Shown here: positions 5,939-63,787 of the stretch, piece by piece | Layout of the letters: every line of letters begins with the position of its first letter | Numbering within the stretch: the first letter of the stretch is position 1 | Assembly: GCA_001780725.1 (NCBI GenBank) | Contig: MFIM01000009.1 | Location: 656-64,655 of the forward strand | Direction of reading: 5' to 3' | Source of the DNA: Candidatus Giovannonibacteria bacterium RIFCSPLOWO2_02_FULL_45_28 | GTDB lineage: Bacteria > Patescibacteriota > Minisyncoccia > UBA11713 > 2-01-FULL-45-33 | DNA: 64,000 nucleotides | Notes under the pieces: model-generated | What the model was told of the DNA's origin: nothing | Seen by the model: the letters and a program-made list of their open reading frames with translations, nothing else | Database searches by the model: none | Position numbers and translations under genes: made by a program

Positions 5939-7084
5939 ATGGCTTTTGGCTTTTTTAAGAAAGAGGGCGGCAAGACGCATATTTTGGCGATAGATTTGGG
6001 CACCGCCTCCATATCGGCAGCTATGGCTGTCAGGCAAGAAGGTAAAAAAACAGAAGTTTTGAAAGTTTTTAGATATCCAATAGATTTATTTGAATATCAA
6101 ATAGCGGGAGGTGCACAGCTGCCGCATATTTTTAAAGAAGGATTTTTAAGGGTTTTTAAGGACGCCCATGTGATTTCTGACCACTTGGACGTTGTAGCAG
6201 TTGGACTTTCCGACCCGTTTTTTTTGGATAAAAAAAAGCAAAGAAAAGTTACGCGTTCCAATCCGGCCGCGGCGATTACCGCCGAAGAGATAAATTCTTT
6301 GGTAAAAACATCGGAAAGCGAAATCGCGGCGCAAAATTTGGCAATTGTACGGCGGAACATTTTAAATACGCAAGTTAACGGTTATGATGTTAGAAACGCA
6401 TCGGGTTATAAAGGGAAGACTTTGGCAATAGAAATGATGTTTACTTCAATAAGCGCGACCTTGAAAGAATATATAGAGGGCGCGAAAGATAAATTTTTCC
6501 CAAAAAGCGCAATTTCTTATTACTCCGATGCCGCGATTTTCCGCGAAGCGCTGAGGGCCGCTGGAAATCTTTCCGAGCCGCGCATTGTAATTGACATAGG
6601 CGGAGAGGTGACAGGCATTTTCTTGGTCGACGATTTGATGTTTCAACACTACGGCGCGGCCGCTTTCGGCATACGCACCTTGGCGCGGAGAATTGCATCA
6701 TCTTTAAAAATAGATGCGGCAGACACAGATTCTTTGCTGAAAAAATATACAGCCGGCACTTTAGACGATGCCGCTCAAGCGAAAATTTCAAGGATTATCG
6801 CTTCGGCTTTGGCTGATTGGTGGTTGTCTTTGAAAAATACGTTTAAACAATTTGCGGAAACGGCCGCAATGAAGAAAGTAATGCTTTCCGGCGGCGGCGT
6901 TGATTTTCCGGCCTTCCCCACGTTTTTAAAAGAGAATTTTAAAAAAGATTTTAACATTGAAGTTGACGTCCTGATTTTGCGCGCCGAAGTCTTTAAGGAT
7001 TTTTTTGAGATAGCTTCTCAAAATTTGCTTTCCGGCGGCGGCGACATTGTTTTGGCTTCATTAGTTCTTCTTGCGCCATGGTGA
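5939..7084 (+). CDS. actin-like ATPase, PilM/FtsA-like
   Basis: MAFGFFKK..ILAIDLGTASI resembles a PilM N-terminus (M.F..KK..GIDIG.S.K). Likely start is the ATG at 5939. Confidence 0.5.
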   Translation: MAFGFFKKEGGKTHILAIDLGTASISAAMAVRQEGKKTEVLKVFRYPIDLFEYQIAGGAQLPHIFKEGFLRVFKDAHVISDHLDVVAVGLSDPFFLDKKKQRKVTRSNPAAAITAEEINSLVKTSESEIAAQNLAIVRRNILNTQVNGYDVRNASGYKGKTLAIEMMFTSISATLKEYIEGAKDKFFPKSAISYYSDAAIFREALRAAGNLSEPRIVIDIGGEVTGIFLVDDLMFQHYGAAAFGIRTLARRIASSLKIDAADTDSLLKKYTAGTLDDAAQAKISRIIASALADWWLSLKNTFKQFAETAAMKKVMLSGGGVDFPAFPTFLKENFKKDFNIEVDVLILRAEVFKDFFEIASQNLLSGGGDIVLASLVLLAPW

Positions 7085-20158: not shown

Positions 20159-20246
20159 CGCACGAATGTCGGCACTAGCTAGTTTTGCGGCCCAAATAGA
20201 AAATAAAAACAAAATCTGCCGGCTCCGATTCCCGCTGAAGTTCTCT

Positions 20247-20348
20247 TTATTGGCGCTTGTTTTTGGAGATTATGGTAGGCAAAGCCATCAGAACAATGGT
20301 CAAAGCAATGATAGCCCCGATAAGATAAATGATGAGCATGCTATTCAT
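20247..20348 (-). CDS. possible 33-aa hydrophobic peptide (MNSMLIIYLIGAIIALTIVLMALPTIISKNKRQ)
   Basis: Single TM-like peptide. No clear RBS. Confidence 0.2.
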   Translation of the reverse strand: MNSMLIIYLIGAIIALTIVLMALPTIISKNKRQ

Positions 20349-20470
20349 ACTTATATTTTAGCTGATAACCAACCGTGCTTCAGATAATTTTAATCCCATA
20401 GAATTTTATTCTAGCGCCTTGCTAACAACAGTCAAATAAATAGCCTCTCGCGCGTGTGGATAAACCCGTT

Positions 20471-20480
20471 GGGGGGGGGG
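20471..20480 (+). repeat. G10 homopolymer spanning the -35/spacer of the promoter of the 20503 gene
   Basis: gggggggggg read directly. Sits inside TTGGGG(-35-like)..17 nt..TGATACAAT. Confidence 0.85.
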
Positions 20481-20487
20481 CGTTATA

Positions 20488-20496
20488 TGATACAAT
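20488..20496 (+). promoter_or_regulatory. extended -10 (TGATACAAT) 6 nt upstream of the ATG; leaderless transcript likely
   Basis: Read directly. No Shine-Dalgarno sequence before the ATG at 20503. Confidence 0.45.
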
Positions 20497-20502
20497 GAAT
20501 TT

Positions 20503-22869
20503 ATGGTGAATTTTCGGATAAAATTAGCTTTGTTTTTAGTGATTTTCCTCTCTCTCTCTCTCGCACAGGCCAATGCCGCTTTTGACTTTTCTTTTGCCAA
20601 TCTTTCTCAATCCAACTCTCTTGCCTCCGTATGGGAAAATGTAAAAGACGACATACAAGACTCATGGGAAAACATAAAAGAGTGGCTACTTCCCGCTCCG
20701 CCGCCCCCATCAACCCCGCCAGGCGAGCAAAAACCGTCGCCCTCATCAACGCGCGGGAAAACATCCAATGTTGAATCCCCAAAAACATCGGATGTTGAGG
20801 AGCGCGTTTTCCCGGGCAACGATTTCGAAGAAGAAAGCAAGACAATCACATCTGAACAACCTCTCGCAACCGAGCGCGCTCCGGAACGCGTCACAGTTTC
20901 CACTAACGGAATTACAGAAGCTCGTCTTTTGCAGTCGCTCAATGCCTTGCGCGAAGAGCTATTGGATCGCTTCTCGCAGATTATCGTCTCCGCGCCCGCG
21001 CCGCTTACATTTCATGGTCCTGCGGAAACAACGCCTGCTTCCGTCGCTATGCTGGCTTTATCCCAAAGAATCAACAACCTATCCGGCAGTTCCAATTCCC
21101 CGCTTACCATCTCCGGAGCAACTTTCTCCGGCTCCAATACTTTTAGCCTTACGGATGCCGATGTTCCCGACGGCATCACTGCTTCCAGCTATCTCCCGCT
21201 TTCCGGAGGCACGCTCTCGGGCGCGCTTACCGGAACCAATCTTACTCTCTCCGGCAACCTCACCGTTTCCGGAGCTCAAACTCTTTCCGGCGCCATCACT
21301 ATTCCCTATCTCACCGCGACCTCCACCACCCAGCCCTCCACTTTCGCCTACAACGTCGGCATCGGGACGACGAGTCCGTGGGGGTTATTATCAGTACATC
21401 CCGACGGGATTACCGGTCCCGCTTTTGTGGTCGGTTCATCAACTGCAACAAACTTTATCGTAACTAACGGCGGCAACGTCGGGATTGGGACGACGAGTCC
21501 GACGGCGCTATTGCATGTGGCGCATACCACCGATATTAGTAAAACCTTAATTAACGCAACTTATCTCGGTTTCTCCAAATTTAAGTTGAGATACGATGAG
21601 GGTTCTAATTACCACATTTTGGAAATCTTTAACAGCACGCTTGCTGGGTTTGGTATTACTCTTAATGCAACAGATTGGACCAGTCGCACTGTGACAATAC
21701 GGGGACATATTGATGCTTCGATACCGCTGACCGTTCAATCTAATGACAACACTCCATCACTTGACATTTTCCAGGTGCGCAGGAGTGGCACTCTAATAGA
21801 CCTTGTGGTTAATTCAAGCGGCTTTGTAGGCATAGGCACATCCACCCCAAATTGGCTCCTGCAGGCGGCTGGAACGCGTCCGTTTTTTACCCTCTCCGAC
21901 ACCGCGGCGGGAACGGATTTGAAACATTGGTATTTGTCATCTCAAGGCGGCAATCTGTATGTGGGCACCACCACCGATGCCTATGCCACCACCACCAATT
22001 ATCAAGCATTGACTATATTAAATAACGGCAACGTCGGCATCGGGACGACGAGTCCATGGCGCACCTTTTCGGTGGCGGGGACGGTGGGATTCTCTTCTAC
22101 CCTAACTTCTTCTGCAACGGGAGATTACCTTTGCATAAATACCGACACATACGAGGTCTCAAGAGGCGCGGGAAGCATCTGCACCACTTCTTCCGAAAGA
22201 TACAAAGAGAATTTTGAAGAACTCGCCTACGGACTGGATTCCGTACTCAAACTTCACCCAATCTCATTTGAATACAAGCCCGAGCTTAATATCGGCCCAG
22301 GCCGCAGAATCGGTTTCACTGCCGAGGAAGTGATTAATGTCATTCCCGAAGCGGTTGTGCTTGATAAAGAAGGTCTGCCCAGCGGGGTTGAATACGAAAA
22401 ACTAACCGCGGTTTTGGCAAAAGCCATACAGGAGCTTTACCAAAAAATTATCTCGCTTTTTGATAAAGACAAGGAGCAAGATCAGCGCATCGCTGAGCTT
22501 GAAGCGCGTATAAATGCTCTGGAGGGAGGAGCGCCGGCGGCGGATACCTCCGCCTCCGCCGAGGCTTCGGCGGACAAGGAACCCCCGACCATCACCATCA
22601 ACGGCAACAATCCCGCGAGAATAGAAGTCGGCGCGGCATACAGCGACCTTGGCGCAACCGTCACTGATAATGTCAATGACAATCTCGGTATTGAAATGTT
22701 TGTCGGAGAAACGCCCATGGAGCAGGCATATATTGATACGAGCGAACCGAATACTTACCACATCACTTACCGCGCAACCGATCAGGCGGGTAATGTCGGC
22801 GAGGCGGTGCGTACGGTGGAGGTGTATAGCCAAGCGACAACAACTTTATCCGAAATCCCGTCTCCGTAA
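20503..22869 (+). CDS. secreted tail-fibre-like surface protein with peptidase S74 intramolecular-chaperone domain and C-terminal Ig-like (DUF5011-like) domain
   Basis: Signal peptide MVNFRIKLALFLVIFLSLSLAQANA; Pro-rich linker; three-to-four GNVGIGTTSP repeats; SERYKENFEEL..LHPISFEYKP..GFTAEEVINVIPEAV..AIQELYQKI matches the intramolecular-chaperone domain; PPTITINGNNPARIEVGAAYSDLGATVTDNV..HITYRATDQAGN is Ig-like. Confidence 0.7.
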   Translation: MVNFRIKLALFLVIFLSLSLAQANAAFDFSFANLSQSNSLASVWENVKDDIQDSWENIKEWLLPAPPPPSTPPGEQKPSPSSTRGKTSNVESPKTSDVEERVFPGNDFEEESKTITSEQPLATERAPERVTVSTNGITEARLLQSLNALREELLDRFSQIIVSAPAPLTFHGPAETTPASVAMLALSQRINNLSGSSNSPLTISGATFSGSNTFSLTDADVPDGITASSYLPLSGGTLSGALTGTNLTLSGNLTVSGAQTLSGAITIPYLTATSTTQPSTFAYNVGIGTTSPWGLLSVHPDGITGPAFVVGSSTATNFIVTNGGNVGIGTTSPTALLHVAHTTDISKTLINATYLGFSKFKLRYDEGSNYHILEIFNSTLAGFGITLNATDWTSRTVTIRGHIDASIPLTVQSNDNTPSLDIFQVRRSGTLIDLVVNSSGFVGIGTSTPNWLLQAAGTRPFFTLSDTAAGTDLKHWYLSSQGGNLYVGTTTDAYATTTNYQALTILNNGNVGIGTTSPWRTFSVAGTVGFSSTLTSSATGDYLCINTDTYEVSRGAGSICTTSSERYKENFEELAYGLDSVLKLHPISFEYKPELNIGPGRRIGFTAEEVINVIPEAVVLDKEGLPSGVEYEKLTAVLAKAIQELYQKIISLFDKDKEQDQRIAELEARINALEGGAPAADTSASAEASADKEPPTITINGNNPARIEVGAAYSDLGATVTDNVNDNLGIEMFVGETPMEQAYIDTSEPNTYHITYRATDQAGNVGEAVRTVEVYSQATTTLSEIPSP
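20548..20562 (+). repeat. (CT)7 dinucleotide tract inside the signal-peptide coding region (encodes LSLSLS)
   Basis: cctctctctctctctc read directly. Confidence 0.8.
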
Positions 22870-22969: not shown

Positions 22970-22987
22970 TATAGAAACAGCGCTTTC

Positions 22988-23060
22988 TCCGCCCACCAGG
23001 AATCGAACCTGGAACCTTCTCCTTAAAAGGGAGCTGCTCTGCCAATTGAGCTATGGGCGG
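22988..23060 (-). tRNA. tRNA-Lys (anticodon UUU)
   Basis: Folded by hand: 7-bp acceptor CCGCCCA/TGGGCGG, D-arm GCTC..GAGC, anticodon loop CTTTTAA, T-arm CCAGG-TTCGATT-CCTGG, discriminator A. No encoded CCA. Confidence 0.85.
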
Positions 23061-23083
23061 AGGAAGCGCTGTGCTTCCACTAC

Positions 23084-23329
23084 TTAGCTTTTTAATATTT
23101 CATCCAAAAACTTTCTGCCAACGCCGGATTTCAAAAAATTTTCACGCTTTCGAGCATTCGTCTTATCGGCACAACTTTCTTGATACACCAACTCAAACGG
23201 CCCGTTTCTTCTCGTGAATTTATTGGAACCATAGTTGTGTTTCTTTAACCTTTCCCCTGGCAATAAATCTGTGCTTCCTACATAACGCTTACCATTTTTT
23301 AAACTTTTTAATACATATATGTACGACAT
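23084..23329 (-). CDS. GIY-YIG nuclease-domain protein (YazA/YhbQ-like, 81 aa)
   Basis: YIYVLKSLKNGKRYVGSTDLLPGERLKKHN...GPFELVY.E is the GIY-YIG pattern. Confidence 0.7.
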   Translation of the reverse strand: MSYIYVLKSLKNGKRYVGSTDLLPGERLKKHNYGSNKFTRRNGPFELVYQESCADKTNARKRENFLKSGVGRKFLDEILKS

Positions 23330-56902: not shown

Positions 56903-57545
56903 ATTTTCTAAACACTATAAATTTAAATCCGGTAAAATTCCAGATTATTACTAAAATTGAAGCAAGAACCTTTGCCAGGTTAAGCCATCTTCCCGGAGTA
57001 AAATAGGCCGGCGCCGGAATATAAGTCGTAATAATTATTATGGAAACTGTGTTTAAAATAAGCCCGCCGACGGTGATGGCGAGGAATTTTGGGAAGTCGG
57101 AGAAAAGCCCGTTAGAGGCCCTCGCTGCAAGCGAGGCAGTCCCGCCTGCAGCTGGACTTGCCTTTAACGTGGTAAACACCCACAGCTTGTTCCACAAATA
57201 CCCGTTAAAAACCGCGATTATAAACCCAGGCATGTTTACCCACCCGACAACAATTCCAGCCGTGATGCCAGTTAAGTTGCTTACAACATTGAGGGTTGTA
57301 AAATCAATCAAAGTGGAGAGAAAGCCGGCGGTAACATATTTTCCGAATTGTTCAAAAAACGGGTAGTAACGCCCCAAAAATCCTCCAAGCCATACTCCAA
57401 ATGCAAAAAAGACCGGAACGCCGACCAAAAAAGCAGCCTCTTTATAAGGAAACGAAATCTCCAAATAAAAAGCCATAACCAGCGCCAAAAGCCCCGTAAA
57501 AAACCCAACCACAGCCCCAATCCAATAATCTTTTTTTGTGATCAT
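56889..57545 (-). CDS. GtrA-like polytopic membrane protein
   Basis: Duplicated 2x GtrA-like halves (..N..WNKLWVF.., ..KFIVFRK). Confidence 0.55.
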   Translation of the reverse strand: MITKKDYWIGAVVGFFTGLLALVMAFYLEISFPYKEAAFLVGVPVFFAFGVWLGGFLGRYYPFFEQFGKYVTAGFLSTLIDFTTLNVVSNLTGITAGIVVGWVNMPGFIIAVFNGYLWNKLWVFTTLKASPAAGGTASLAARASNGLFSDFPKFLAITVGGLILNTVSIIIITTYIPAPAYFTPGRWLNLAKVLASILVIIWNFTGFKFIVFRKYAAK

Positions 57546-59965
57546 AACACCTGATGCCTTTTTCTAATTTCCTCCTCTACTTCTTCGCGGGGGCGGGAAT
57601 ATTTGGAACGCGAGAGCTCTTTTATGCGTTCCGCCGTTTGCGTATTGTCCGCCGTCGCTTGTCTGTAAGGTGGCGTTTTTATGTTGAACGGCTTTGATGT
57701 CTGCCCGTCTATTAAAAGCTTAAGGTAAGCGTTGAAGTTATCAATATTCAGCAAATCCTGCGCGGAAAATACCGGTTGAAACTGCTTTTCCATATATTCC
57801 GCGTCGTCCGAGCCGATGCGGAAAGACAAAATTGATCCGACGTTTCCAAAAACCGCCTTTTTTATCTCTTCTTCCAATTGCCCGATAAATTGGTGCGCAA
57901 TTATAAGATTGAGTTTGTATTTTCTTGCCTCCGAAAGGATGGTGGCAATTGATTTTGTCGTAACGTTTTGAAATTCGTCTATATAAAGATAAAAAGCTCC
58001 GCGTTCCGTTTGCGGCTTGTCCGTGCGGGACAGCGCCGCCATCAAAATTTTCCCTACCATAATAAGGCCCAAAAGGCTGGAATTTAACTCGCCCAATTTG
58101 CCTTTAGAAAGGTTTAAAAGCAAAATCTTCTTTCCGTCCATCACGTCGCGGATGTTAAACGCCGAATGCTCCTGCGCTATAATCGGGCGCATAATTTCAT
58201 TTGCCAAAAAAGTGTCAAATTTGCTTACGATGTAGGGTACCATATTTGCCAATGATTGCTCGCCGCCGGCTTTCTCCGCGATTTGCCGCCAGAAAGTTTC
58301 CACCACGATGTTTTTGGAGCGCGAGAGTTTATGGTCGCGGAAAGATTTGTCGGTCAGAACTCTTTCAATATCCAAAAGAGTGTTGCCGCTTTCCGGATCT
58401 TCCATTACAAGCATCGCGGCGTTCCTGAAATATTGTTCAAACATCGGGCCTCCGGCAATGGACATATTGAAGAGTTTATTAAAAATTTCCAAAAGTTCGT
58501 TGACTATAAGACTGCGCTGTTCCGGAAATCTGGGGTCAAATTCCAGCATATTGAGTCCAATTGGATGCCCCGCGTCCCCGGGATCAAAATAAATGACGTC
58601 CTCCGCGCGCTCTTCGGGTATAAGAGGCAGCACCGACCCGATAAGATCTCCGTGCGGATCAACCACAGCAACCCCATTTCCCTGCTGAATATCCTGAATG
58701 ATCATATTGTGCATAAGGCTGGATTTGCCTGTGCCTGTCTGCCCGATTATATAAAAATGGCGTTCCCTGTCCTCTTTTTTAATATGAACCGGCCGCTCCT
58801 CGCCCCTAAAAGAACTTACACCGAGCATTATGCCTTCTTTGGGTAAATTTATCGGTGCTGCGGCCTCTCTGGCTTTTAGGGTGCGCACCGCAGGCGCAGC
58901 TCTTTTGGAATAAGGCAAATGGTAAACGCTGGCGATTTCTTCAACATTCAGATTTAAAACATGGTTTTCGTCAAATAGCCTGAATGAAAAACGCTCAACC
59001 AGTTTTCGCAGCGCTTTCCCGCCAAGCTCTTTTATTTTAAATTCGCTGCCTTCGGGATTTGTAAACTGGAAAAAACTTGCTCCTAAATTTTTAAGCAAAG
59101 CGTCGGCCCGTTCCGTGGAAGCGGCGGACGCAAGAATGCGAACGTTGCATTCAAACGTTGTTTTGCCGGCTTTCTCTTCAAAAAGCTTGGCCAGCTCCTC
59201 GTCGTATGCGGTTCTTTGGTCTTTGGATTTTTTCTTGCCGGAAAAAATATCCCAAAACACGCTCCAAAATCCGGTTTTACCCAAAACTTCTTTTCGGGAA
59301 ATCCCCTCTTTTAATTTTTGCGCTGCGCTGTGTGCGTGTTTTTTTGTGTTCTCGCTGCCGAATCTTAAAACTATCTGCAAGGCCGCTCCCTCGCCATATT
59401 CTTTAATTTTAGAAAAGGCGGAAGTTATTGTTTCCAAAGGGTCGGCCGCAAGCTTCTGGTAAGTTTTTATCGGTAAAATTTCGGATCCGGAATGCAAAAC
59501 CAAAGCGCCTGCGGTAGCGCCCTCAACGTTAAAAATATTGTAATCCGACACCCTTTCTATTTTGGCCTCCGGAAAGGAGCCGTGAAGCTGGTTTTGGAGC
59601 AGAGATTCATAAATTTTCGGGAACGCAATGTAGAAAAAAATTTCACTCCCGCGGTTGTGAGAAGCGATTTCCATGGCAAAAGACGGATTGCCCCAGAGTT
59701 TGCCTGCAACGCCTTTCTTTTTCGTTTGAACAAGCCCGTTTAAAAGTTGTTCCATTTGCATTATGAAGTTTTTCAACGCTTCCCTTTCATCTACTTTTTG
59801 GGTTCCAACAGCGGTTTCCGGAGCGCTGATTAAATAAAGCGCAAGGCCCAAGCCGGAGCTGACATTGCGGAATTTTTTCGCGCGCCGATAGAAAAAAACG
59901 GAAAACAGCCAAAGCAAAATTGCCAGCAAGATAAAAAATATAATATAAATGGTTGCGGCGTTCAC
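57542..59965 (-). CDS. membrane-anchored VirD4/TraG/TraD-like type IV coupling protein family ATPase
   Basis: N-terminal TM; Walker A YIIGQTGTGKSS; Walker B LYIDEFQN; 807 aa. Confidence 0.5.
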   Translation of the reverse strand: MNAATIYIIFFILLAILLWLFSVFFYRRAKKFRNVSSGLGLALYLISAPETAVGTQKVDEREALKNFIMQMEQLLNGLVQTKKKGVAGKLWGNPSFAMEIASHNRGSEIFFYIAFPKIYESLLQNQLHGSFPEAKIERVSDYNIFNVEGATAGALVLHSGSEILPIKTYQKLAADPLETITSAFSKIKEYGEGAALQIVLRFGSENTKKHAHSAAQKLKEGISRKEVLGKTGFWSVFWDIFSGKKKSKDQRTAYDEELAKLFEEKAGKTTFECNVRILASAASTERADALLKNLGASFFQFTNPEGSEFKIKELGGKALRKLVERFSFRLFDENHVLNLNVEEIASVYHLPYSKRAAPAVRTLKAREAAAPINLPKEGIMLGVSSFRGEERPVHIKKEDRERHFYIIGQTGTGKSSLMHNMIIQDIQQGNGVAVVDPHGDLIGSVLPLIPEERAEDVIYFDPGDAGHPIGLNMLEFDPRFPEQRSLIVNELLEIFNKLFNMSIAGGPMFEQYFRNAAMLVMEDPESGNTLLDIERVLTDKSFRDHKLSRSKNIVVETFWRQIAEKAGGEQSLANMVPYIVSKFDTFLANEIMRPIIAQEHSAFNIRDVMDGKKILLLNLSKGKLGELNSSLLGLIMVGKILMAALSRTDKPQTERGAFYLYIDEFQNVTTKSIATILSEARKYKLNLIIAHQFIGQLEEEIKKAVFGNVGSILSFRIGSDDAEYMEKQFQPVFSAQDLLNIDNFNAYLKLLIDGQTSKPFNIKTPPYRQATADNTQTAERIKELSRSKYSRPREEVEEEIRKRHQVL

Positions 59966-60374: not shown

Positions 60375-62063
60375 ATGCGAGGAGCTACTTTGTGGCTTGT
60401 TATTATTTTACTTATAGCGGTTTTTTTCCGTTTTTACGATTTAAAAAATGTGCCGCCAGGGCTGTGGGCGGACGAAGCAATAAACGGGAATAATGCGGTG
60501 GAGGCGAACTGGAAAGTTTTTTACCCGGAGAATTTTGGCAGAGAAGGCCTTTTTATAAATATTCAATCGTTGTTTGTCACCGCCTTCGGCAACGAGCCGT
60601 GGGTATTGCGCTTGCCTTCGGCGATTTTCGGCGCATTGACCGTGCTGGGGCTTTATTTAATGACACGCGAACTATTTAGCGGAAAGGTTGCGTTGTTCGC
60701 TTCTTTTTTTCTGGCAACTTCTTTTTGGCATATTAATTTTTCCCGCATCGGATTCCGCGCGATTATGGCGCCGTTTTTTTTGGTCTGGAGTTTCTATTTT
60801 TTATTTTTAGGAATGAGAAAAACTGCGACCTTCTCAACACTCGGTGTTGAATCACCAAAAACACAGAGTGTTTTCCCAGTCGCAGTTTTTGCTTTGGCTG
60901 GATTACTTTTTGGCCTCGGCTTTCACTCCTATATTGCTTACCGAATTGCGCCCGTAATCGCACTTTTGCCGCTTTGGAAATTTTATAAATTGCGGTTGAT
61001 TGAAGTCCGACTTCAATCAGTTTCTGATGGAAGTCGGACTTCAATCATTTCTCGCGCTTGCACGCCGTGCCTAATTGGCCTTTTTATTTTCATGGCTTTC
61101 GTTGCCGCTCTTCCTTTGCTTTGGTATTATGCGCAGAATCCGGCGGATTTTTTGGGAAGAACTTCGGCAATATCAATTTTCCGATCACCGAACCCGCTCG
61201 CTCAATTTTCAGAAAATTTTGTAAAAACTCTGGGGATGTTCAATGTTGTAGGCGATTTTAACTGGCGGCACAATCTTGCCGGCTCTCCCCAGCTTTGGTG
61301 GTCAGTAGGAATTTTATTTCTTTTTGGTCTTTTGGTCGCATTGCGCTCCTCAACACTCGGTGTTAAATCCCAAAAAACACCGAGTGTTTTCCCGCGCAAT
61401 GCGTATAATTTTGTTCTGCTTTGGTTTGCAATCATGCTATTGCCAGTCGCTCTTTCCAACGAATCTTTGCCGCATGCCCTTCGCGCCATTGTTTTGATAC
61501 CGCCTGCGATGATTTTTGCCGCTTTGGGGCTGGAACGGATTATTGAAAAATTTAAAACGTGGCTAGAAAAGCAAAAAAACAATTGGCCGAGCAAGCTAAA
61601 CCAGCTTCTTCGCATACAGCGCGAGCTTATTTTATTGCTTTTTGTATTTTTTGCCGCCAATATTGCCCATGCTTATAACGCATACTTTCTTCGCTGGGCT
61701 CCAAATTTTAACGTTTACCAAGCATTTCAGGTCGACATTACGGAAAAGGCTCATTGGCTTAATCAACAGCCAGAAAACATTAAAAAATATGTTATTACTG
61801 ACGCCGTTGATCGTATAGATATAAGCGGCTCTCCAATGTCGCTTCAACCGGTTATTTTTATCACAAATACTTTTTTTGAAAAAGTTCAGAAAGAAAAAAA
61901 TATTTATTATTTTGGCGCAAACAATCTGAGCGGCGTTGATTGCTCCGGCAAATGCGTTATTATCCCGGTTGAATCAAAACCCACAATTTATAAAACCCTG
62001 AAACAAAAAATCCCAGGTTTGCGCTTGGATGCTTCCCCTGGGTTTGTGATTTTTAGAAAATGA
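60375..62063 (+). CDS. GT-C fold glycosyltransferase family 39 (PMT/ArnT-like)
   Basis: N-terminal DE motif (WADEAINGNNA), about 12 TM. Carries three in-frame palindromic inserts. Confidence 0.7.
   Translation: MRGATLWLVIILLIAVFFRFYDLKNVPPGLWADEAINGNNAVEANWKVFYPENFGREGLFINIQSLFVTAFGNEPWVLRLPSAIFGALTVLGLYLMTRELFSGKVALFASFFLATSFWHINFSRIGFRAIMAPFFLVWSFYFLFLGMRKTATFSTLGVESPKTQSVFPVAVFALAGLLFGLGFHSYIAYRIAPVIALLPLWKFYKLRLIEVRLQSVSDGSRTSIISRACTPCLIGLFIFMAFVAALPLLWYYAQNPADFLGRTSAISIFRSPNPLAQFSENFVKTLGMFNVVGDFNWRHNLAGSPQLWWSVGILFLFGLLVALRSSTLGVKSQKTPSVFPRNAYNFVLLWFAIMLLPVALSNESLPHALRAIVLIPPAMIFAALGLERIIEKFKTWLEKQKNNWPSKLNQLLRIQRELILLLFVFFAANIAHAYNAYFLRWAPNFNVYQAFQVDITEKAHWLNQQPENIKKYVITDAVDRIDISGSPMSLQPVIFITNTFFEKVQKEKNIYYFGANNLSGVDCSGKCVIIPVESKPTIYKTLKQKIPGLRLDASPGFVIFRK
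60821..60877 (+). repeat. 57-bp in-frame palindromic element, copy 1, inside the GT39 gene
   Basis: aactgcgacc..CAACACTCGGTGTTgaatcaccaaaaaCACAGAGTGTT..gtcgcagtt: nested inverted repeats. About 90% identical core to 61338..61402. Confidence 0.7.
60997..61047 (+). repeat. tandem 23-nt palindromes (tgattgaagtccgacttcaatca / tgatggaagtcggacttcaatca) inside the GT39 gene
   Basis: Read directly. In-frame, encoding LIEVRLQSVSDGSRTSII. Confidence 0.65.
61338..61402 (+). repeat. 65-bp in-frame palindromic element, copy 2, inside the GT39 gene
   Basis: gcattgcgc..CAACACTCGGTGTTaaatcccaaaaaaCACCGAGTGTT..gcgcaatgc. Confidence 0.7.
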
Positions 62064-63787
62064 ATAAATACGCGAATTATTTAGCAATTTTGATGCTCGC
62101 GATAATGTTTGCGCTGATGTTTGGGTCAAGCATAAATGATTCGGCGATTTTTGATGAGGTGGCGCATATCGGGGCGGGATACACATATTTGAAGTATCAA
62201 GACGGAAGGCTGAATCCGGAGCACCCACCGCTTTTGAAAAGTTTGGCCGCGTTGCCACTTGTGTTTCTGAATTTGAAATTTGACCAAGGACAGCAATTTT
62301 GGACAATAGAAAATGTGAACGATCGGCAATGGCTTGCCGGCAATCACCTTCTATATGAAGCTGGCAACGATGCAGATCAAATTCTTTTTTGGTCGCGATT
62401 GCCAATGATTTTGCTAACTATTCTTTTTGGGTGGATTTTGTTTTGGTGGGTAAAAAGGCGCTATGGAGCGAGAGTGGGATTGCTTACTTTATTTTTCTTT
62501 TCCGTCTCTCCTACTTTTTTAGCGCACGGAAGATATGTTACAACCGATGTCGGAGCCGCATTCGGATTTTTTCTTGGAATCATTTTTTTTCTAAAGTTTT
62601 TGGAAAGGTGGGATTTAAAATCAGCAATTTGGCTAGGTATAGTACTGGGGTTTGCCCTGCTTCTTAAATTTTCGCTTGTTTTATTGCTGCCGGTTTATTT
62701 GATTTTGGGAGTTTTTCGGATATTTCTCGGTCGCAGAAAAGATAACCCCTCCCCCCAACCCACTCCCCTAGGGGGAGTGGGGAATTGGGTGGGGTTCCTC
62801 TCATTATTGGGGACACTTGCTTTCTCCAGCCTCATTGCTTTAGCCATCGTTTGTATCGCTTATATCTCCCAAATCTGGAATTATCCTCATGACCAGCAGA
62901 TAAAAGATTCGCGCTACATTCTTGCGGGCTACCAATATCAATCTTTGGCAAAACTTGATTTTTGGCTTACAGAACACAAGCTAACGCGGCCGCTAGGGCT
63001 TTACTCGCAGGGCTTTTTGATGGTTGCGCGGCGCACTGCCGGTGGAAATACGGCTTACTTTATGGGCGAGGTTTCTTCAAAAGGATGGTGGTCATATTTT
63101 CCGACTCTGGCAATCACAAAAGAACAGCTTGGGTTTTATATTTTAGCGGCGGTGGCGATTTTTTGGGCAATAAAAAAACGAGCAAAGCCGGATTTTGTAA
63201 GTTTATCTGCAATTGTTTTTATAATCTTTTATTGGATTTCTTCAATTTTAAATCCGTTAAACATCGGTGTGAGGCACGTGCTCCCGACTTTTCCGTTTTT
63301 ATATTTTTTAGTGGCGAAAGAATTATCTGAAATAAAACTGAATTTGTTAACCGTAGTTATAATGCTATGGATGATTGTGGAAATAATTCTAGCTTTTCCC
63401 TACTATCTTTCTTATTACAACGCGCTGGGAGGCGGTTTGCAAAACGGCTACAAAATCGCAACTGATTCCAACCATGACTGGGGGCAGGACTTAAAACGCC
63501 TCCGCGATTATGTGGAAAAAAGTAATATTTCAAAAATAAATCTTGATTATTTCGGAGGCGGTTCACCAAAATATTATCTAGGAGAAAAATATGAAGGCTG
63601 GTGGTCATCGCGCGGCGCTCCTCCTGCCGGCTCTTATTTTGCCGTATCGCTTAATTCTTTGACCGGCAACCAAGCCAAACCGATCGGCGATGTGCAGATC
63701 AAGCCGGAAGACACCTATTCTTGGCTCAAAAACAAAACCCCGATTGCTCGGGGTGGAATATCTATTTTGATATTTAAGATAGATTAA
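62060..63787 (+). CDS. second GT-C glycosyltransferase family 39 (ArnT/PMT-like) paralogue
   Basis: DEVAH..GY..HPPLLK N-terminal motif, multi-TM. In-frame GC palindrome insert at 62744..62800. Confidence 0.7.
   Translation: MNKYANYLAILMLAIMFALMFGSSINDSAIFDEVAHIGAGYTYLKYQDGRLNPEHPPLLKSLAALPLVFLNLKFDQGQQFWTIENVNDRQWLAGNHLLYEAGNDADQILFWSRLPMILLTILFGWILFWWVKRRYGARVGLLTLFFFSVSPTFLAHGRYVTTDVGAAFGFFLGIIFFLKFLERWDLKSAIWLGIVLGFALLLKFSLVLLLPVYLILGVFRIFLGRRKDNPSPQPTPLGGVGNWVGFLSLLGTLAFSSLIALAIVCIAYISQIWNYPHDQQIKDSRYILAGYQYQSLAKLDFWLTEHKLTRPLGLYSQGFLMVARRTAGGNTAYFMGEVSSKGWWSYFPTLAITKEQLGFYILAAVAIFWAIKKRAKPDFVSLSAIVFIIFYWISSILNPLNIGVRHVLPTFPFLYFLVAKELSEIKLNLLTVVIMLWMIVEIILAFPYYLSYYNALGGGLQNGYKIATDSNHDWGQDLKRLRDYVEKSNISKINLDYFGGGSPKYYLGEKYEGWWSSRGAPPAGSYFAVSLNSLTGNQAKPIGDVQIKPEDTYSWLKNKTPIARGGISILIFKID
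62759..62781 (+). repeat. GC-rich palindrome CCCACTCCCC-ta-GGGGAGTGGG inside the second GT39 gene, preceded by AACCCCTCCCCCCAACC
   Basis: Read directly. Encodes DNPSPQPTPLGGVGNW. Confidence 0.6.

Follow-up and report, generated by a model that had tools for sequence, protein, structure and literature searches.

In Neisseria, opa carries CTCTT repeats in the part of the signal-peptide code that specifies the hydrophobic core, poly-G or poly-C tracts between the -35 and -10 elements of porA and opc set promoter strength, and pilC has poly-G in its signal-peptide code. Several ATGs in different frames lie upstream of the repeat in the lic1/lic2-type loci of Haemophilus influenzae. The sabA gene of Helicobacter pylori has a poly-T tract in its promoter together with a (CT)n repeat at its 5' end; alleles with 7 or 10 repeats are in frame, and sabA occurs in ON and OFF forms both among strains and within a strain (PMC2715451). 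A rheostat model has been put forward for the promoter homopolymer of this gene (PMC4081817). The window described here, that is, the whole 64-kb stretch of DNA that was analysed (44% G+C), is chromosomal DNA of Candidatus Giovannonibacteria (Parcubacteria, candidate phyla radiation (CPR)/Patescibacteria) from the Rifle aquifer. It contains a gene for a 788-aa secreted, adhesin-like fibre protein with two simple sequence repeats (SSRs) at its 5' end, a G10 homopolymer and a (CT)7 dinucleotide repeat. It is proposed here, with a probability of roughly 65%, that the locus represents a contingency (phase-variation) module with two tracts, placed on the gene of a secreted, adhesin-like trimeric fibre in a CPR bacterium. 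The features of the locus, in window coordinates, are as follows.

20469-20474, + strand: -35-like hexamer TTGGGG, separated from the -10 hexamer by 16 nt; the G tract begins within it, with its four Gs
20471-20480, + strand: G10 homopolymer at -32 to -23 relative to ATG 20503, covering the 3' end of the -35 element and the adjoining part of the spacer
20488-20496, + strand: extended -10 element TG-A-TACAAT, with TG at 20488-20489 and the hexamer at 20491-20496, which ends 6 nt before the ATG
20503-20505, + strand: ATG start codon and, from the geometry, probable transcription start of a leaderless mRNA
20503-22869, + strand: fibre gene, encoding the 788-aa secreted protein
20503-20571, + strand: signal-peptide code, MVNFRIKLALFLVIFLSLSLAQA with cleavage predicted before NA; charged n-region, hydrophobic core and AQA cleavage motif, the site being read from the sequence
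20548-20561, + strand: (CT)7 dinucleotide repeat; it specifies the LSLSL of the signal peptide's hydrophobic core
22189-22356, + strand: Peptidase_S74 intramolecular chaperone/autoprotease domain (aa 563-618), with an SSERYK Ser-Lys motif
22591-22824, + strand: C-terminal bacterial surface Ig-like domain (aa 697-774; Pfam PF16403, E = 1.3e-12)

The sequence of the locus reads cccgTTGGGGGGGGGGcgttataTGaTACAATgaatttATGGTGAATTTTCGG... The (CT)7 repeat starts 45 nt past the ATG at 20503, in the open reading frame (ORF) 20503-22869, and 67 nt separate it from the G10, both tracts being at the 5' end of one gene. A G10 in the -35/spacer region of a TTGGGG promoter, found nowhere else in the window, and a (CT)7 repeat 45 nt into the signal-peptide code of a 788-aa gene had been noted in an earlier sequence-only reading; both positions and the uniqueness of the G10 were confirmed. 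The longest other G or C run in the window is 7 nt, and the longest other dinucleotide repeat has 4 units. When the window was shuffled with its dinucleotides preserved, G10 tracts appeared with a mean of 0.07 (at least one in 5 of 100 shuffles) and (CT)7 repeats with a mean of 0.00 (none in 100 shuffles). Both tracts thus have the length and the over-representation of an SSR contingency locus. In other bacteria, hypermutability sets in at G/C tracts of at least about 8 and at dinucleotide repeats of at least about 5-6 units, values that do not come from the CPR. CTC makes up 8% of the leucine codons of the window, and the chance of an LSLSL segment written entirely in CTC and TCT is about 2e-5. 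Since CTC is a rare codon and the LSLSL is purely CTC/TCT, the repeat is a feature of the DNA and not a requirement of the protein.

The placement of the (CT)7 repeat gives it a direct hold on the reading frame. Simulated alleles with 4, 7 or 10 CT units encode in-frame proteins of 786-790 aa, and those with 5, 6, 8 or 9 units encode peptides of 24-47 aa. The 765-codon body loses its frame whenever the repeat slips by one or two units. It had been claimed that one CT unit gained or lost would shift the frame, and this is borne out: with (CT)6 the ORF stops after 26 codons and with (CT)8 after 47. No rescuing start codon was found in the frame of the body before codon 143. Given the early stops and the lack of a rescuing start, a single slipped CT unit would abolish the secreted protein. 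The locus thus has the placement of an SSR contingency locus, with a CT frameshift tract in the 5' coding sequence and the G10 between the TTG and the -10 element.

The strongest new support for the proposed module is comparative and comes from homologues that have other tract lengths and include both in-frame and out-of-frame alleles. A survey was made of 120 homologues of the window protein, two of which (P0002 and P0116) have an LS run in the N-terminal membrane segment and, in their DNA, the same tract pair. A second search, seeded with P0116, brought many others, and the DNA of four of its matches was read. In all, the two-tract module was found on six other, diverged homologues from Kaiserbacteria and other metagenome contigs, with G/C tracts of 7-10 and (CT)7-14. 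The seven genes are listed here, with positions relative to the start codon.

Window gene: G10 at -32 to -23; (CT)7 at +45; in frame
L011 (also L012): C9 upstream of TGcGACAAT; (CT)9 at +68; in frame (ON)
L047, Candidatus Kaiserbacteria GCA_001781475.1: C10; (CT)10 at +72; in frame (ON)
L010 (also L015 and L016): C8 upstream of TGgTATAAT; (CT)14 at +110; out of frame relative to the conserved N-terminus and the first ATG
L046: C8; (CT)7 at +95; out of frame (OFF)
L044: G8; (CT)11 at +27; out of frame (OFF)
L045: G7; (CT)12 at +27; out of frame (OFF)

Intact homologous loci therefore include ON and OFF alleles, three of the seven genes being in frame and four out of frame. The placement of the tracts is maintained: the homopolymer occupies -38 to -25 in the six homologues and -32 to -23 in the window, and the CT tract begins at +27 to +110 in the homologues. 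In one group of homologues (group 1) 6-7 nt separate the extended -10 from the ATG, which matches the leaderless arrangement of the window, and in a second (group 2) the layout resembles the window in having TTGA followed by G7 or G8. The bodies of the three groups are 35-46% identical and their 5' regions cannot be aligned except for the repeats, and perfect tracts are kept in all of them.

In the four OFF alleles the body remains open over 990-1420 codons, and the N-terminal peptide is conserved. The sequence MKRFSATLL in the OFF allele L045 is the N-terminus of the in-frame proteins P0148, P0178 and P0229. RGAFY-SLSL in L010 and L046 compares with RGAKY-SLSL in the in-frame P0116, and MSDDEFENYFVASKARK in L010 matches MSDTELDREFFVASRLQK in the in-frame P0132. 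Among the in-frame relatives the LS run itself varies, being (LS)2L in P0229, (LS)3L in P0148 and P0178, and (LS)4L in P0218. This supports the view that the alleles of the homologues, judged from their sequences, behave as expected of frame switching driven by slippage, and from them we infer switching at the window locus. That every OFF allele is one unit from an ON allele is trivial for a frame of period three and was not used as evidence. Gene callers bypass the frameshift by taking an internal Met (P0113, P0160 and P0169, MPAQVQEL...), a GTG after the repeat (P0151) or the second ATG (P0002). As a result these five proteins are annotated with wrong starts or appear to have no signal peptide.

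Two ATGs that are 7 nt apart and in different frames precede the CT tract in L010 (885/892) and L046 (2891/2898), and the (CT)14 of L010 is in frame with the second. With two ATGs in different frames, two of the three repeat phases could give a full-length protein, with different cytoplasmic tails.

Group 2 (P0148, P0169, P0178, P0113, P0160, P0218 and P0229) consists of mosaic proteins. P0148 and P0169, for example, are 95% identical over their first 578 aa and unrelated beyond. The conserved N-terminal segment of about 120 aa on different bodies suggests that fibre modules recombine behind a common expression site. A 23-nt perfect palindrome, ATATCGACCTACGAGGTCGATAT, is found in L045 (2653-2720, two copies) and in L044 (about 20-45). 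It is within a nearly identical stretch of some 170 nt that precedes two different fibre genes of group 2 and ends at the TTGA-G7/G8. The palindrome region could represent a 5' cassette that these genes share and that is possibly mobile, or else a terminator or an element like the repetitive extragenic palindromic (REP) sequences.

How frequent is such a module by chance or in the wider family? In 389 kb around 27 other homologues in Genome Taxonomy Database (GTDB) genomes there was no dinucleotide repeat of at least 6 units. There are four G/C8 runs in the same 389 kb; three are internal to long ORFs, the fourth (L041) is in a stretch with no clear long ORF, and none is at a 5' end. None of the 14 homologues in that set with a complete 5' end has an SSR there. 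The bare pattern (G>=7 or C>=8, a gap, and (CT)>=7) was scanned for in IMG/VR, and its 21 matches in the whole database include none beside a fibre homologue. The module is rare in the family, yet too frequent and too consistently placed for chance. One family of viral contigs in the IMG/VR matches (L055, L056, L058, L063, L064, L067 and L068) has C8-11 and (CT)7-14 with lengths that differ between contigs. In L064 (6878-7537, - strand), the only contig of this family that was read, both tracts are inside one ORF, which reads ...IYYARRIRSQNGKVERERAEQ...RNRGGVE... on the other strand. The viral family was ruled out as a module of the fibre type, since its SSRs are internal coding repeats unrelated to fibre genes.

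The promoter of the window gene has the geometry of a leaderless extended -10 promoter. Relative to ATG 20503 the -10 hexamer is at -12 to -7, within the distance of about 6-8 nt from the start, TG is at -15/-14, and there is no Shine-Dalgarno (SD) sequence before the ATG. The gene at 60375 has the identical TGATACAAT followed by 6 nt and ATG. In the 60 nt upstream of 57 window ORFs, 11 of 37 strong -10-like hexamers sit 6-9 nt before starts, and SD-like motifs show no peak in these regions. This suggests that many genes of this Giovannonibacteria genome are on leaderless mRNAs. Boxes like TATAAT, TACAAT or TAGAAT, often TGn-extended, are seen 6-8 nt before many starts that lack an SD sequence (9821, 12137, 13804, 19670, 29931(-), 39321, 44751, 49849(-) and 60375). 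Leaderless initiation affects the calling of start codons in CPR genomes and carries a risk of wrong starts. An alternative start, TTG 20530, is used for the fibre gene by several gene-calling pipelines and gives a protein of 779 aa. ATG 20503 is preferred because it gives a canonical n-region (MVNFRIK), whereas TTG 20530 would drop the charged n-region. ATG 20503 is therefore probably the start codon, and transcription of a leaderless mRNA probably begins at or close to it. The expectation that a G gained or lost would change the promoter spacing holds as a matter of geometry, the predicted spacers being 15, 16 and 17 bp for G9, G10 and G11.

Several observations weigh against the two-tract module, and they are best taken together with the alternatives that they favour. 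It may be that the CT tract alone switches the gene and that the G/C homopolymer is passive or acts otherwise, through DNA shape, as spacer filler or as a binding site. The -35 of the window is weak, as TTGGGG matches TTGACA at 3 of 6 positions and the site is unlisted by a consensus scanner. Extended -10 (TGn) sigma-70 promoters tolerate poor -35 elements, and a TGn-extended -10 is found in six of the seven genes (window, L010, L011, L045, L046 and L047), where it may make the -35 dispensable or buffer the effect of the G tract. Group 1 has no -35 at a workable distance (16-18 nt), the TTGACA of L011 being 24 nt from the -10, and the distance from the homopolymer to the -10 ranges from 9 to 17 nt among the homologues. 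The effect of G-tract length on transcription is thus a candidate role deduced from geometry. However, the homopolymer accompanies the CT tract in seven of seven genes, always within -38 to -23, despite flanks that are unalignable between groups. Its length (7-10) differs even in close relatives, with G7 in L045 and G8 in L044 behind an identical 170 nt upstream, and other G/C runs of at least 8 occur about once per 100 kb and never at a 5' end. For these reasons a switch worked by the CT tract alone is considered unlikely.

A more far-reaching objection is that the tracts are neutral, low-complexity DNA born of slippage, that the window gene is constitutively ON and that the out-of-frame homologues are decaying pseudogenes. 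The window and nine assemblies (L001-L009) all have G10/(CT)7. This agreement of ten independent DNA copies excludes an assembly artefact, but it also means that length variation was not seen at this locus. On 12 contigs the protein is the exact 788-aa form, on more than 30 it is a TTG-called 779-aa form, and LSLSL is encoded in all nine protein variants of the 90% cluster (about 45 contigs). Joint Genome Institute (JGI) metagenome contigs, scanned with a gapped pattern open to any tract length, gave one extra copy (L009), again G10/(CT)7, and the four truncated proteins that OFF alleles would leave (646, 640, 635 and 606 aa) are absent from a collection of 15 billion proteins. Heterogeneity within the population was therefore not seen at the level of assembled consensus sequences; the sampled contigs are near-clonal consensus sequences, mostly from one aquifer, in which minority variants are invisible. 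The sampled Rifle population has the gene fixed in the ON configuration, which is the majority state at that site. Breaks of contigs close to the tracts (P0123 begins 25 codons in, and L014 begins 54 nt past the tract) were considered as a sign of heterogeneity among reads and set aside as too weak. Most homologues are without the module, which is confined to a few lineages and is not family-wide, and the OFF calls for L044, L045 and L046 come from one short-read assembly each. In the comparison of orthologous loci that the sequence-only reading had pointed to, no length change was seen at the locus itself, and six diverged homologues differ in length, four of them out of frame. The neutral account is nevertheless rather improbable. 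Random sequence stops about every 21 codons, and the OFF bodies are open for 990-1420 codons behind conserved pre-repeat peptides. Perfect repeats persist across bodies of 35-46% identity, the tract pair at 5' ends is far above background, and its leucine codon is a rare one. A third account would attribute the diversity to another system, such as an invertible promoter, a diversity-generating retroelement (DGR) or cassette recombination, with the SSRs incidental. The mosaicism of group 2 points this way, as does the frameshifted fibre homologue P0151 of L046, which directly precedes a bAvd/23S_rRNA_IVP gene (a DGR accessory gene, 6035-6397) and may undergo DGR hypermutation as well as SSR switching. 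For the window, an invertible promoter and a DGR were rejected: there are no inverted repeats of at least 14 nt flanking the promoter (only weak inverted matches of 10-13 nt), no recombinase, reverse transcriptase or Avd gene adjoins the fibre gene, and no paralogue or silent cassette of it was found in the 64 kb. Such systems could add to the SSRs in relatives, but they leave unexplained the frame changes that fall exactly at CT tracts, and as a replacement for SSR switching they are very improbable.

The product of the gene is supported as a secreted adhesin-like fibre by its domains and matches. Identical proteins include OGF49718.1, and the assemblies that carry it include GCA_001780605.1 and GCA_001778415.1. 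Its domain order is predicted to be a signal peptide, a Pro-rich linker, a helical neck, beta-helix repeats of the GNVGIGTTSP type, the S74 domain, a coiled coil and the Ig-like domain. The S74 domain matches Pfam PF13884 with E = 1.5e-11 and 44.8 bits against a cut-off of 22, and S563 and K568 of its SSERYK motif, the Lys five residues after the Ser, are unchanged across 51 homologues. In the AlphaFold monomer model, confidence is high for the S74 and Ig-like domains only, with a predicted local distance difference test (pLDDT) score of about 90 and about 94, respectively; the fibre part has a pLDDT of 35-70 and was read via fold matches alone. In Foldseek searches the fold matches of the Ig-like domain are Ig-like adhesin or S-layer domains, and the top matches of the fibre part are Bd2133, Bd3182 and Bd1334 of Bdellovibrio. 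The sole match of a phmmer search against the PDB is Bd2133 (8OND; E = 4.3e-6, aa 312-532). The protein thus combines an S74 domain above the curated cut-off, with its Ser-Lys pair, and a secreted beta-helical region that resembles the solved mosaic adhesive trimeric (MAT) fibres of Bdellovibrio. The label of adhesin, which had been given to the gene at the outset, is in keeping with the signal peptide, the two Pfam domains and the sequence and fold matches to the MAT fibres Bd2133 and Bd3182. A trimeric nature, self-cleavage and the binding of host cells are predicted from homology.

The fibre gene stands among housekeeping genes, with dnaK, a serine hydrolase gene, dnaJ and the gene of a 162-aa membrane protein upstream, and a tRNA-Lys gene, a GIY-YIG gene and a DDAH-like gene downstream. 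The tRNA-Lys(UUU) gene (22987-23061, - strand) and the small GIY-YIG nuclease gene (23084-23329, - strand) are immediately 3' of it. The conserved dnaK-dnaJ block on one side and the tRNA-Lys/GIY-YIG pair on the other hint that the fibre gene occupies a variable slot. An Rfam scan of the window returned two tRNAs only and no known RNA element at the locus. A 33-aa hydrophobic ORF, MNSMLIIYLIGAIIALTIVLMALPTIISKNKRQ (20247-20348, - strand), is divergent from the fibre gene and has a promoter-like site at 20435..20408 (- strand) that is sigma-70-like and scores 10/12. It overlaps a 73-aa ORF on the + strand (20166-20387) that pipelines annotate in its place and that has no family match. Elsewhere in the window, an 807-aa protein (57542-59965, - strand) has TrwB/TraG/HerA-like type IV coupling-protein domains (Pfam E = 7e-10), and its gene adjoins those of two PMT_2 glycosyltransferase-like membrane proteins (60375-63787).

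If the locus is a contingency module, slipped-strand mispairing at the (CT)n repeat in replication would turn the fibre reversibly ON and OFF in a fraction of the cells. The TTGGGG -35 would owe its 3' half to the G10, which would also make up some of the spacer ahead of the extended -10 (TGnTACAAT), and from this promoter a leaderless mRNA would start at the ATG. A G gained or lost would change the spacer and may tune transcription in the manner of a rheostat. Why would a bacterium of this kind switch such a gene? The purpose may be bet-hedging over the display of a host-attachment fibre, either for host choice or for escape from phage or defence systems that target the fibre. The CPR/Patescibacteria are tiny, mostly uncultivated bacteria that make up a large share of bacterial diversity, and to our knowledge almost nothing is known about their gene regulation and host choice. 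No report of SSR phase variation in this group was found in the literature, and a slippage switch on an adhesin-like fibre would be the first indication found of contingency loci in the radiation. A wider and much more tentative idea, which we hold to be doubtful, is that the homopolymer and the signal-peptide (CT)n form a conserved 5' 'expression cassette' that Parcubacteria-type CPR bacteria place before mosaic, recombining fibre adhesins, one of them adjacent to a DGR gene. Random switching of these fibres, both ON/OFF and in level, would then serve such obligate episymbionts for hedging of host attachment or for phage escape. If that were true, contingency loci, which have so far been found mainly in pathogens and animal commensals, would be a general tool of the environmental episymbiotic lifestyle. 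The seven concrete loci make phase variation in uncultivated episymbionts testable with existing read data.

How does the module compare with known systems? The sequence-only reading had recognised a contingency architecture of the kind found in Neisseria and Haemophilus. The architecture stands, but these are not the closest model, and the best precedent is sabA. The opa design and the porA/opc design each correspond to one half of that of the window. In Neisseria there is normally one device per gene, whereas both are present here, and the opa repeat is a pentamer and not a dinucleotide. The two ATGs of L010 and L046 recall the lic1/lic2-type loci; the window gene has no such arrangement, and its other frames close quickly.

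The fibre has its own counterparts. The MAT fibres of B. bacteriovorus are described as decorating the surface of the predator, and term searches of their description gave no sign of control by SSRs (PMC10769870). The window protein resembles the S74 subgroup of MAT fibres, and the S74 tail fibres and tailspikes of phages, in having a signal peptide, a beta-helical fibre and an S74 SxxxxK autoprotease/chaperone. The V-G-(G/N)-x-x-x-P capping motifs of MAT fibres correspond to GNVGIGTTSP in the window protein. Unlike the MAT fibres, the window protein has a coiled coil and an Ig-like domain after the S74 domain. Within the CPR, a hypervariable gene of Gracilibacteria (BD1-5) with a PTD 9-mer repeat has been discussed in terms of slipped-strand mispairing (PMC6851277). 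It is the only repeat-driven variable gene of the CPR that was found in the literature and the nearest precedent there. The PTD repeat is an in-frame 9-nt repeat that alters the length and composition of the protein and, unlike the window tracts, provides no frameshift or promoter ON/OFF switch.

With sabA, and also with oipA and other Hop genes, the locus shares the principle of two independent SSRs on one adhesin gene, a homopolymer at the -35 and a (CT)n at the 5' end of the coding sequence. In sabA the first tunes transcription and the second switches translation. In the window both tracts are on one gene and in these same two places, the -35 region and the 5' coding sequence. As in sabA, 7 or 10 repeats keep the gene in frame, and related sequences include both ON and OFF alleles. 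The differences lie in the details. The homopolymer is a G/C tract of 7-10 nt inside the -35/spacer here and T13-19 beside the -35 in sabA; the mRNA is apparently leaderless here; and the product is a predicted trimeric S74 fibre and not a Hop beta-barrel outer-membrane protein. The bearer is an environmental CPR bacterium and not a pathogen, and within-strain switching, experimental in sabA, is proposed here from sequence comparison. The locus is thus a candidate dual-SSR contingency locus like that of H. pylori sabA, the phylum and the protein family both being new for this type.

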